Assembly: GCA_963826715.1 (NCBI GenBank)
Contig: CAWGYA010000008.1
Coordinates: 224,001 to 288,000, forward strand
DNA: 64,000 bases
DNA from: Candidatus Bathyarchaeota archaeon
GTDB lineage: Archaea > Thermoproteota > Bathyarchaeia > Bathyarchaeales > Bathycorpusculaceae
Direction of reading: 5' to 3'
Positions 11,861-42,209 of this stretch are shown here, piece by piece (within the stretch, counting starts at the first letter, position 1; each line of letters starts with the position of its first letter). The translations under genes and the position numbers were made by a program. The notes below the pieces were generated by a model, which saw only the letters and a program-made list of their open reading frames with translations, was not told the origin of the DNA and ran no database searches.

Positions 11861-11968
11861 TGGTGCCGGGGGCGGGATTCGAGCCCGCGACTTCTGGCAC
11901 TGGGCGGTTGGCCCTACTTGTCTCCAGATTATGAGTCTGGCGCCCTAGCCAGGCTAGGCTACCCCGGC
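11861..11968 (-). tRNA. elongator tRNA-Met(CAU), encoded CCA, 30-nt intron at 11892-11921 (position 45/46)
   Basis: Acceptor GCCGGGG/CCCCGGC-A-CCA; D stem GCCT/GGGC; anticodon arm CCAGA-CTCATAA-TCTGG; T arm GCGGG-CTCGAAT-CCCGC; removing the insert gives a 78-nt cloverleaf with variable loop AGGTC. GCCGGGG start fits elongator Met, not initiator or Ile2. Confidence 0.92.
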
Positions 11969-33715: not shown

Positions 33716-33724
33716 TTAGAATTC

Positions 33725-33985
33725 TTAGTGTTGAACTGTGCTGCACATATTAACTATTTCTCGGTAGATCTGCTCAATTCTGTCAGGGTCTAACTTGAGT
33801 AGTTCAGCTCTTTCTCGGACGCGGCTGAAAACTTCATTTTCCCGAGAGATGTCGTGGACAGCTTTACCCTGCTGCTTCTTAACTTCTCCGATGGCGCGGC
33901 AGATTTTTACTCGTAAAACAATATCATGTAGGATTTGATCGTCGACTGCATCGACTTTTTCACGCAGATTTTCTAAGTCACCCAT
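33725..33985 (-). CDS. aroQ: chorismate mutase (AroQ type)
   Basis: LREKVDAVD, R..I...IGEVK, D.SRE..V. Confidence 0.9.
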   Translation of the reverse strand: MGDLENLREKVDAVDDQILHDIVLRVKICRAIGEVKKQQGKAVHDISRENEVFSRVRERAELLKLDPDRIEQIYREIVNMCSTVQH

Positions 33986-33989
33986 TTTT

Positions 33990-40614: not shown

Positions 40615-41859
40615 TTAGTTTGTCTTTAGCGCATTTTTTATTAATTTTAAAGCTTTCTCTTTTTCGTTCCAATCTATAAATAACAATATACTTGAAGTAA
40701 TAGTCAAGATGCCTGAAATGTTTATGCCGTTAACGTTCAAGTCCTCGCTTATTCGACCGATTATACCATGAGTTTTCTCCAAACCAACACCGCTTGTTTT
40801 GATAAACACCAAGTCCTTCTTAACGGCCATAGCGATTGTTTCTTTGTTGTTTATTGTTATTTCGTGTATTTGGTTAAAGAGATTATTGATTGTTTTCTCT
40901 TGTGGCACATAGAGGATTATCGAGTTAGTGTTCATCGACATACCCAAAAGCATGGAGTTTTCTTTGACTTTCTCTACCAGCTGTGTGATAACCTGAGGAT
41001 TAGCTGATAATCCATCCCCAACAACAGTGATTTCAGCAACTGGCATAGGATGGGCAATTTCAGCGTCAAGTTCCGAGGCTAATCCACCTTTAATTAGGGT
41101 TCCTTCTTTGCCAAGATCACCATAGGCTGAATTCATAACTTTCACATCAATGTTTTCGGGTTTGTATTTGAGAGCCTTGCTATGGATGAACTTTGCGCCT
41201 GAATCCGCTAAACCCACAAGTGTGTTAACGTTGATTTCTGATAGTCTTTGGGGTGTACCGACGATTTTTGGGTCACCAGACATTATGCCATCTGCATCGG
41301 TTACAAGGACTACTTGGTCGGCATTTAGTCCCTTGGCCAAGAGGAAGGCTGTGGTGTCGCTTCCACCTCTGCCAAGGGTGGTAATTTTGCCACTTTTTGT
41401 TTTGCCCACGAACCCTGGGATGACAGGTATTAATCCTTTTTCTACTAGGGGGAGGATGCATTCATTGATGTTTTCTGCGCATTCTTGTAACAGCGGGTTG
41501 GCGTTTTGGAAGGCTTCGTCAGTTATGATGGGCCATTTGCAGTCCATTGGATCGAAGTAGCATGCGGCCACTCCGTTATTGCGCAATGCGGTTGCAAAGA
41601 TACGCACGCTAGTGCGTTCACCCATAGAAAGAATGTCATCTAAATCATGTTTTTCCAGTTTACCATTCGAAGTATTTTTTGCTGTAGTCATAAGGACATC
41701 AGTGGTTTTGCCCATAGCTGAGACCACGACAGTTACTTTGGTGCCTTTTTTGGCTTCATTCACTACTGCCATTACAGCACGTAAAAGACGTTCATGATCG
41801 GATAGACTGGATCCCCCGAATTTAACAACAATTTTACGTTCAGAGAGTTGTTTTGCCAT
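40615..41859 (-). CDS. lysC: aspartate kinase with C-terminal ACT domains
   Basis: VKFGGSS, VVSAMG, TLGRGGSDTTA, TDADG...DP. Confidence 0.93.
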   Translation of the reverse strand: MAKQLSERKIVVKFGGSSLSDHERLLRAVMAVVNEAKKGTKVTVVVSAMGKTTDVLMTTAKNTSNGKLEKHDLDDILSMGERTSVRIFATALRNNGVAACYFDPMDCKWPIITDEAFQNANPLLQECAENINECILPLVEKGLIPVIPGFVGKTKSGKITTLGRGGSDTTAFLLAKGLNADQVVLVTDADGIMSGDPKIVGTPQRLSEINVNTLVGLADSGAKFIHSKALKYKPENIDVKVMNSAYGDLGKEGTLIKGGLASELDAEIAHPMPVAEITVVGDGLSANPQVITQLVEKVKENSMLLGMSMNTNSIILYVPQEKTINNLFNQIHEITINNKETIAMAVKKDLVFIKTSGVGLEKTHGIIGRISEDLNVNGINISGILTITSSILLFIDWNEKEKALKLIKNALKTN

Positions 41860-41880
41860 TTTGTGTTACACCCTTGTTTT

Positions 41881-41918
41881 GCCCAGAACCGCTCTTGAAA
41901 AAATTTTCAGTTCTGGGC
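41881..41918 (-). promoter_or_regulatory. hairpin enclosing a U6 tract, immediately after the leader-peptide stop
   Basis: Minus strand GCCCAGAAC-TGAAAATTTTTTCA-AGAGCG-GTTCTGGGC: perfect 9-bp outer stem plus inner AU stem. Confidence 0.7.
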
Positions 41919-42008
41919 TTATGGAAAATATTCGTTATAATAAAAGACGTAGTCGAAGCTACGGAACAAAATTGCAGTACCAGCATCTTTTCCATTTGCA
42001 ATTAGCAT
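41919..42008 (-). CDS. putative Phe/Tyr-rich leader peptide, 29 aa (not in ORF track)
   Basis: MLIANGKDAGTAILFRSFDYVFYYNEYFP*; BRE/TATA-like CGAAACGC-TTATAT at ~42058-42045 upstream; lies 5' of the aromatic operon. Confidence 0.72.
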   Translation of the reverse strand: MLIANGKDAGTAILFRSFDYVFYYNEYFP

Positions 42009-42209
42009 TGCTTCGAACCTTTGGAATCACTCATATACCAAAAAATATAAGCGTTTCGGATTTAAGCTAAACAATAAGAAGTTAACTCTGGTTCTTAAGA
42101 AAATATGATCCCCTTATTTCTGCGGGGGACGACGTAGTGGAGTTGAGGTAATGGGTTACCAATATTATCACTCGATGAGGTTTAATTTACAAACAATAAT
42201 TGGTGCAAA

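Follow-up and report, generated by a model that had tools for sequence, protein, structure and literature searches.

A stop-codon hairpin in the phenylalanine- and tyrosine-rich leader of a bathyarchaeal aromatic amino acid operon: a candidate archaeal leader-peptide attenuator

Introduction

Leader-peptide attenuation is a textbook mechanism of bacteria, where the enterobacterial pheL-pheA and trpL leaders act as leader-peptide transcription attenuators. In the tnaC-tnaAB system of Escherichia coli, a ribosome located at the leader stop codon blocks Rho and the genes are switched on. Full-text literature searches found no published case of an archaeal leader-peptide attenuator. The element described here is a leader with a phenylalanine- and tyrosine-rich open reading frame (ORF) in front of an aromatic amino acid operon of a Candidatus Bathyarchaeota archaeon (GenBank assembly GCA_963826715.1, contig CAWGYA010000008.1, forward-strand positions 224,001 to 288,000). 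This whole stretch of 64,000 nucleotides (nt) is referred to as the window; positions are counted from its first letter and, the leader lying on the minus strand, descend in the direction of transcription. Judged from its sequence, the leader resembles an amino-acid sensor read by the ribosome, a kind for which only bacterial descriptions were found.

The likeness to pheL-pheA and trpL lies in a short ORF rich in codons for the end products, placed between the promoter and the first biosynthetic gene, and in RNA helices interlocked with this ORF, with H1 overlapping the regulatory codons. Unlike those systems, the host is archaeal, the main hairpin (H2) begins directly behind the stop codon and lacks a trailing U-run in this genus, the comparison revealed no conserved antiterminator that would match it in strength, and there is no match in Rfam (at the gathering score the window gave none apart from a tRNA, and E values up to 10 added chance matches only, of at most 15.5 bits). 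In addition, archaeal termination proceeds via U-tracts and the factor FttA, also termed aCPSF1, and not via a hairpin followed by U. As in tnaC-tnaAB, the deciding position of the ribosome would be the leader stop codon, the last residue of the leader peptide is often proline and, in the model preferred below, the read-out would be the access of a termination factor to the RNA just past the stop. The polarity would be opposite, in that a ribosome at the stop would switch the genes off by preventing a protective hairpin; the factor would be FttA instead of Rho, and no conserved arrest peptide emerged in the leader described here.

According to the relevant parts of PMC8716108, the KH domains of FttA bind U-tracts with no need of a hairpin, archaeal termination sites show no preceding hairpin in Term-seq, and according to older studies a hairpin is not strictly required. 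The corresponding passages of PMC11616081 describe the FttA terminator as spanning −1 to −36 of the RNA, with a U-rich part at −30 to −36 and a cut 15–25 nt from the 3′ end, and put forward the hypothesis that ribosome and FttA are mutually exclusive on Spt5. The leader resembles the U-tract terminators of these passages (PMC8716108; PMC11616081) in having a run of 5–7 U in single-stranded RNA, a genome that encodes FttA and a spacing that fits the −30 to −36 site; it differs from them in that the element sits in a 5′ leader within a hairpin loop, not at a gene end, and in having one U-run, not several.

What is new here is that no helix is conserved apart from the stop-abutting hairpin and H1, that the U-run is looped and not paired, and that two explicit wirings remain. 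The element is compact and highly conserved, is made of few parts (promoter, H1, Phe/Tyr ORF, stop-codon hairpin and loop U-run) and belongs to a widespread uncultured lineage. Should the hairpin control the access of FttA, the archaeal termination factor would, as far as the literature searches show, be put to regulated use for the first time, and the element would provide a direct handle on archaeal transcription-translation coupling. If the inverted wiring set out below is true, archaeal leader-peptide sensing would be built on termination machinery unlike that of bacterial attenuators. Should the hairpin instead be the off form, it would follow that archaeal polymerase or translation reacts to hairpins in an undescribed way.

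The stop-codon hairpin and helix H1

The features on which the argument turns are as follows.

41919..42008, minus strand: leader ORF of 29 codons, MLIANGKDAGTAILFRSFDYVFYYNEYFP, with its UAA stop at 41921-41919
42010..42016, minus strand: H1 5′ strand, UCGAAGC, between the Shine-Dalgarno (SD)-like AGGU and the leader AUG (RNAalifold columns 15-21)
41953..41959, minus strand: H1 3′ strand, GCUUCGA, over the Ser17-Phe18-Asp19 codons (RNAalifold columns 77-83)
41908..41918, minus strand: H2 5′ arm, GCCCAGAACUG, predicted by folding and the RNAalifold consensus
41892..41907, minus strand: H2 loop, AAAAUUUUUUCAAGAG, 16 nt comprising an A-run, U6 (41903-41898) and a purine-rich 3′ part
41881..41891, minus strand: H2 3′ arm, CGGUUCUGGGC, predicted by folding and conservation

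The main stem of H2 pairs GCCCAGAAC (41918-41910) with GUUCUGGGC (41889-41881), its first base following directly on the UAA. Such a 9-bp stem had been proposed in an initial annotation of this DNA, made by a model from the letters alone; the complementary segments named there are all present where it placed them, and the stem is fully paired in 108 of 109 related leaders, the sole miss being an alignment shift. The stem is extendable to 11 bp (41918-41908 with 41891-41881), with energies of −15.0 kcal/mol for the shorter and −19.0 kcal/mol for the longer form and an ensemble probability of ca. 1.0. The 61-nt fold has a z score of −3.3, equalled by 1 of 200 shuffles, and the hairpin is a single copy in the 2.64-Mb genome. 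The further claim that the stem buries UUUUUU did not hold, as U6 sits unpaired in the 16-nt loop of the minimum free energy (MFE) structure, with a probability of being unpaired of 0.62–0.87 at 37 °C and 0.48–0.92 at 15 °C. On its 3′ side H2 continues with AAAACAAG, not with a U-run, and ca. 8 nt separate its 3′ end from the SD of the first operon gene. An intrinsic terminator, that is a GC-rich hairpin with a directly trailing U-run, is not present before this gene, the U-run being located in the H2 loop. An upper helix between the A-run and the U-run inside the loop was considered and rejected; it is predicted for some sister genera and is weak in this genome.

Related leaders were gathered with a search pattern of promoter and 5′ untranslated region (UTR) that did not touch the 3′ part of the ORF or the hairpin. 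This yielded 95 metagenome stretches; together with the genome loci, the set comprised 127 loci that extend at least 215 nt downstream, 109 of them distinct; these 109 leaders are close kin and not independent. The H2 stem is found in every one, following the strict pattern in 104 and with wobble or compensatory changes in five, and starts at 0 nt from the stop in most, otherwise at −1 nt or +5 nt. RNAalifold returns two consensus helices only for the alignment of the 109 leaders, H1 and H2, the latter with a tenth pair. Across both, 98.7% of cells are paired (98.1% for H2 and 99.6% for H1 alone) versus 21–46% after sliding the partners by 1–3 columns. H1, with 7 bp conserved and 9 bp including a bulge in the MFE structure, was absent from the helices of the initial annotation. 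Beyond the genus, 43 leaders were taken from other genera and families of the order. In 42 of them, a hairpin starts −3 to +6 nt from the stop of an aromatic-rich ORF; the stem sequences are often entirely different (median z −2.0, with z below −2 in 21 of the 43). In sister genera, pair positions 8, 9 and 10 of H2 each occur with four standard pair types, e.g. A-U, G.U, G-C and C-G (anchored pair table). Comparison of homologues, suggested at the outset as a check on the stem, finds it kept in all 109 relatives and compensatory pairs in sister genera, with weak covariation inside the genus. An H1-like link of different sequence between the 5′ and 3′ parts is likewise predicted in 36 of the 43, a count made without a shuffle control.

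Two side observations concern the shape of the hairpin. Its base, GCCCAG...CUGGGC, is constant across families f1, f6 and f7 (leaders L245-L278 and L025) while the upper stem covaries, and L278 has a compensated GCCCAA/UUGGGC there; by this comparison, sequence conservation of the hairpin base exceeds the need of pairing alone. A clade of the same genus (L024, L193, L217 and L023) has a UAG stop that overlaps the first stem base, loops of 12–16 nt and a loop U-run of at most 3, with H1, ORF and H2 kept.

RNA element or DNA element

Substitutions in the 9-bp core were placed on a neighbour-joining tree of the non-stem columns, with event counts possibly inflated by tree error. The 5′ arm underwent ca. 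25 transitions. Three positions account for the A-to-G events (18, 4 and 1), and C-to-U makes up the rest (1 and 1). All of these yield G.U or U.G pairs with one exception, an A-to-G in L176 for which the 3′ arm compensates by a U-to-C. At the mirror positions, the 3′ arm carries this U-to-C and three to four C-to-U changes that again give G.U, and the apparent breaks in one row stem from an alignment shift; uncompensated U-to-C or G-to-A changes in the 3′ arm were absent among the 109 sequences. The asymmetry between the arms, 25 versus 1, has a binomial probability below 1e-6, and because a DNA palindrome or neutral drift would strike both arms equally, it argues that H2 is selected as RNA on the transcript strand.

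This pattern bears on the proposal that the element acts as DNA, either with the inverted repeat as the operator of a regulator or with the A/T-run of the loop as TATA box for a promoter inside the leader. The repeat is perfect over 9 bp around an A4T6 centre, which would suit such a role, and palindromic operators control aromatic genes in Thermococcus (Tar), which provides a precedent. The strand-asymmetric substitutions, ca. 25 in one arm against one in the mirror positions and wobble-compatible on the transcript strand, contradict it, as do the hexamers ATTTTT and TTTTTT, which are not enriched in promoter regions (0.78–0.79-fold, versus 4.2-fold for TTATAT). A DNA-level role is hence scarcely credible, and an internal promoter in the H2 loop was rejected since the T-run hexamers are not promoter-like in this genome. 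Together with the leaders of other genera, the substitutions indicate instead that H2 is a genuine RNA structure, with abutment on the leader stop codon as its defining trait.

Alternative helices within the leader

The initial annotation had embedded the stem in a scheme of mutually exclusive helices, designated b to e here: AUUUUC/GAAAAU (b, −0.1 kcal/mol) as an alternative to the stem, AUGGAAAA/UUUUCCAU (c, −4.9 kcal/mol) in competition with AAUUGCA/UGCAAUU (d, −3.8 kcal/mol), and CGUAG/CUACG (e, −4.7 kcal/mol) over the first regulatory codons. All four are present in this genome, and in nascent RNA that ends at U6 the most stable fold is helix b (−1.5 kcal/mol at 37 °C, −7.6 kcal/mol at 15 °C). 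Its strands are also compositionally conserved, with UAU UUU at codons −3/−2 and an A-rich start of the loop. However, the ensemble probability of each of the four helices is ca. 0, none belongs to the RNAalifold consensus, and full pairing among the 109 leaders is limited to two for b, one each for c and d, and two for e. The 163-nt leader contains 4 Watson-Crick helices of at least 7 bp versus 1.17 +/- 1.05 in dinucleotide shuffles (13 of 500 reach 4), while helices of 5–6 bp occur at chance level (14 versus 15.8; 7 versus 4.4). Helices b to e are chance-level or private to this genome, and the full scheme, as a set of functional alternative folds, is largely refuted by the comparison and has next to no probability left. 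Helix b may, in the folding model, be a transient intermediate before the 3′ arm exists.

Ribosome position and its read-out

Ribosome-masked folding was performed with a footprint of 28 nt; this footprint and the coupling distances used below are bacterial values. With the A site at F18, Y20, F22, Y24 or Y27, H2 remains intact. It is largely lost at F28 and lost with the A site on the stop, so that the constrained folding first suggested as a check favours a stem that responds to the ribosome. Across the 109 leaders, the median probability of the 5′ arm being unpaired is 1.00 with the ribosome at the stop and 0.00 seven codons upstream. A ribosome at the stop had also been expected to expose the U tract, which the modelling does not bear out, since its median probability of being unpaired is 0.57 in that state versus 0.76 with H2 formed, and rises in only 30 of the 109. 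The last residue of the leader peptide is proline in 65 of the 109. Proline before a stop codon slows release in bacteria and, by analogy, a terminal proline could prolong the stay of the ribosome at the leader stop.

Accessibility of the SD and start region of the kinase gene, compared between a ribosome at the stop and one upstream, shows no consistent shift, being higher in 34 and lower in 25 of 96 leaders; a switch that masks the SD was rejected on this inconsistency. In the modelling, H2 is therefore a clean reporter of a ribosome at the end of the ORF, with a read-out that is neither pairing of the U-run nor masking of the SD. The same figures weigh on post-transcriptional control, in which a stalled ribosome, the 5′-terminal H1 and H2 would alter the lifetime of the mRNA, as a barrier to a 5′-3′ exonuclease, or the loading of ribosomes on the kinase gene, with no regulated termination. 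Stabilisation of mRNA by stalled ribosomes is known for erm leaders in Bacillus and serves as a precedent, H1 includes the predicted 5′ end of the mRNA, and H2 ends shortly before the SD. Such control leaves the exact abutment of stop and hairpin and the spacing of the loop U-run unexplained, and with the inconsistent accessibility of the start region it is considered quite improbable.

The loop U-run

The longest U-run in the loop has at least 5 U in 89 of the 109 leaders, exactly 4 in 16 and at most 3 in four, and is preceded by a purine run in every case. It ends 21–23 nt past the stop in 87 of the 109 and 7 nt before the 3′ arm in 78, and the loop, measured from the 9-bp stem, is 20 nt long in 69. 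In this genome, T-runs of at least 6 occur at 3.31/kb in the 60 nt after stop codons versus 0.435/kb on the coding sense strand (7.6-fold), and this enrichment in 3′ flanks is the signature of archaeal oligo-T terminators. In other genera, U-runs of at least 3 just after the hairpin were found in 7 of the 43 leaders. Because only a minority of the hairpins of other genera hold a long U-run (see below), the U-run is, by this comparison, a trait of the genus and its near kin and not of the whole leader design.

The conserved distance between stop and U-run could also be read as a sign that U6 is an intrinsic pause or terminator, acting before the 3′ arm is transcribed, through which a close ribosome pushes the polymerase, as in pyrBI. 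With bacterial expressome distances, a polymerase on the U-run, which ends 21–23 nt past the stop, would have its coupled ribosome on the last Tyr-Phe codons. For a biosynthetic operon this logic is wrong, as plentiful Phe/Tyr would give read-through, and both H2 and H1 are left without a role, making this reading highly improbable.

An inverted, factor-dependent attenuator

If H2 is the only switch, it must be the ‘on’ form, since it is removed only by a ribosome at or close to the stop and kept when the ribosome stalls further upstream, and the operon is biosynthetic. Of the inverted attenuator logic put forward in the initial annotation, this much is supported on that condition, H2 and the leader ORF being conserved and H2 lost only near the stop, whereas the part in which the stem hides the U tract is not. 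FttA/aCPSF1 is encoded in the genome (TIGR03675, 899 bits against a cut-off of 580). By simple arithmetic, a polymerase located between SD and AUG, ca. 52 nt past the stop, would have U6 at ca. −31 to −36 and the H2 3′ arm at ca. −15 to −25. The U-run and the 3′ arm would then lie on the RNA path of FttA, and closure of the hairpin and threading of FttA would compete for the same nucleotides.

The mechanism proposed from this geometry is as follows. With ample Phe/Tyr, the first ribosome would reach the stop and cover the 5′ arm of H2, leaving the loop U-run and the unpaired 3′ arm to trail the polymerase as linear, U-containing RNA, a substrate for FttA/aCPSF1, and transcription would stop ahead of the aspartate-kinase gene. 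When Phe/Tyr-tRNA is scarce, the ribosome would stall upstream and H2 would zip up as its 3′ arm leaves the polymerase; the FttA substrate would be withdrawn and the operon transcribed. The U-run may in addition pause the polymerase, letting the ribosome catch up. The preferred reading, in which formation of H2 means ‘on’ and a ribosome at the stop exposes the FttA substrate, with termination following before aspartate kinase, is offered tentatively, as possible and still short of probable. The complete wiring, a factor-dependent attenuator in which the stop-abutting hairpin would be an anti-terminator withholding U-containing RNA from FttA/aCPSF1 and the terminating, not the stalled, ribosome would be the off-switch, is held with slightly more reserve.

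Several points weigh against this reading. H2 does not pair the U-run, whose modelled accessibility fails to increase when the ribosome is at the stop. The ribosome footprint and the coupling distances are borrowed from bacteria. The Phe/Tyr codons reach codon −2 in 108 of the 109 leaders, and a stall there would partly open H2. Among the relatives, the loop U-run falls to U4 in 16 and to at most 3 in four, and in other genera a U-run of at least 5 lies inside the hairpin in only 13 of 43. Covariation within the genus is weak, with two pairs changed on both sides and a score reached by 7 of 500 shuffles. Furthermore, H1 has no role in the inverted scheme, and the 5′ UTR GGUUCGAAGC (42020-42006) partly mimics the H2 3′ arm GGUUCUGGGC and can pair with the stop and 5′ arm (41921-41908); this mimicry counts against H2 as the ‘on’ form because selection should then avoid such pairing.

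The 5′ UTR and a classical-style switch

The 25 nt through the leader ATG pair with the stop and 5′ arm at a median of −7.9 kcal/mol in the genus, versus −2.3 kcal/mol for the next 25 nt, and are the better partner in 108 of 109 leaders. For other genera the medians are −8.7 versus −3.6 kcal/mol for the adjacent 25 nt, the former being better in 32 of 42. The pairing is strong in some leaders of family f7 and of sister genera; strong cases with different sequences are L272 (−16.7 kcal/mol), L275 (−17.3), L273 (−17.3) and L251 (−13.4), and the best upstream partner of the stop and 5′ arm falls inside this 25-nt region in 34 of 48. Against dinucleotide shuffles of the whole upstream leader, however, the pairing is not significant (median z −0.8, z below −2 in 10 of 48, and a z of +0.5 for the window), and cognate pairings average −10.1 versus −8.8 kcal/mol for non-cognate ones.

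The scheme of the initial annotation leaves unexplained both H1 and the partial resemblance between the 5′ UTR and the 3′ arm, which suit a classical-style attenuator of three helices with H2 as the ‘off’ form. With no ribosome on the Phe/Tyr codons, H1 would hold the 5′ UTR and H2 would form; a ribosome stalled on the H1 3′ strand would free the 5′ UTR, which would capture the stop and H2 5′ arm, H2 would fail to form and the operon would be expressed. Such a switch accounts for H1 and its overlap with the first regulatory codons, for the advantage of the 5′ UTR over the adjacent control region in both samples, for the strong pairings of unrelated sequence and the position of the best upstream partner, and for Phe/Tyr codons that extend to the end of the ORF. 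It is countered by the non-significant pairing, little stronger for cognate than for non-cognate partners, and by energies in this genus, where −7.4 kcal/mol cannot hold against the −19 kcal/mol of H2. Moreover, H2 is followed by AAAACAAG and not by a U-run, other leaders rarely have U just after the hairpin (at least 3 in 7 of 43), and masking of the SD is not there to give an ‘off’ effect. To our knowledge, archaea have no mechanism in which a hairpin lacking a trailing U-run serves as an off signal, and in the relevant part of PMC8716108 archaeal termination sites have no preceding hairpin in Term-seq. The classical-style switch is judged unlikely, yet stays a live rival.

The leader ORF, its promoter and the operon

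The remaining features of the transcription unit are listed below.

42040..42057, minus strand: predicted promoter of the leader transcript, transcription factor B recognition element (BRE)/TATA, GAAACGC TTATATTTTTT
41869..41873, minus strand: SD of the first operon gene, GGGUG (GGGTG in 74 of 96 relatives; 6 nt from the ATG in 59 of 96)
40615..41859, minus strand: aspartate kinase, operon gene 1 (NCBIfam NF005159, 384.5 bits, cut-off 379)
Next gene, minus strand: ADH synthase (NCBIfam TIGR01949, 334 bits, cut-off 299)
After ADH synthase, minus strand: 3-dehydroquinate synthase II, from best NCBIfam matches below cut-off
Then in order, minus strand (NCBIfam): AroD, AroE, archaeal shikimate kinase, EPSP synthase, chorismate synthase, aminotransferase and prephenate dehydrogenase

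The TATA-type element lies 32–49 nt upstream of the leader ATG. Its presence in 127 of 127 relatives is by selection, the pattern itself having served to fetch them; in the same genome, TTATAT, TTTATA and CTTATA are 2.9- to 4.3-fold enriched at 15–60 nt upstream of gene starts. Promoter spacing would place the transcription start near 42023-42021. The leader peptide has Phe or Tyr at 7 of its final 14 residues, with the last 12 codons mostly Phe/Tyr, and all 109 distinct relatives have an ATG-to-stop leader ORF with 6–10 Phe/Tyr/Trp among the last 14 residues. Among 2166 upstream small ORFs of the genome (2.64 Mb, 41.5% G+C) it holds rank 1, and in a crude scan of these no second leader of like design stood out. 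The best explanation of these features is that the ORF, located 59 nt upstream of a 414-amino acid gene, encodes a translated peptide and that the region is the downstream part of a transcribed leader of ca. 165 nt.

The label ‘aro leader’ of the initial annotation is confirmed by NCBIfam, whose matches describe an operon that starts with aspartate kinase and ADH synthase and leads to chorismate. Its pathway is, we presume, the aspartate-semialdehyde/6-deoxy-5-ketofructose 1-phosphate (DKFP) route of many archaea. An orthologue of the aspartate kinase occurs in 24 of 24 sampled genomes of the genus and in 162 of 301 genomes of the order (E <= 1e-90). Weaker matches to the aspartate-kinase query lie elsewhere in the genome (C8:290402-291385, E 1.3e-35; C7:264450-264860, E 7.4e-13), and the operon-linked kinase may be a copy dedicated to the aromatic pathway.

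Codon choice at the end of the leader ORF is biased. At codons −3 and −2 (41930-41925; alignment columns 106-112), UAU outnumbers UAC by 82 to 0 and UUU outnumbers UUC by 93 to 0, while genome-wide usage is 51% for UAU and 56% for UUU. The last three codons of the 43 leaders from other genera show UUU over UUC by 35 to 0 and UAU over UAC by 39 to 4. This synonymous bias points to selection at the nucleotide or decoding level, with wobble decoding, U-richness and pairing with the A-run of the loop as candidates. For Phe, ARAGORN reported tRNA-Phe(GAA) only, and UUU would be read by wobble because this is the sole tRNA-Phe found; tRNA-Tyr and tRNA-Trp were not reported by ARAGORN in the whole genome. 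Rfam detected a tRNA of 105 nt at 11864-11968 on the minus strand (57.8 bits) that was missed by ARAGORN and is presumably intron-bearing.

Further along the operon, the 275-nt gap between chorismate synthase and aminotransferase is filled by an ORF of ca. 86 codons (MGDLENLREKVDAVDDQIL..., 33716-33989, minus strand), below the 100-amino acid listing threshold, which by eye reads like an AroQ-type chorismate mutase.

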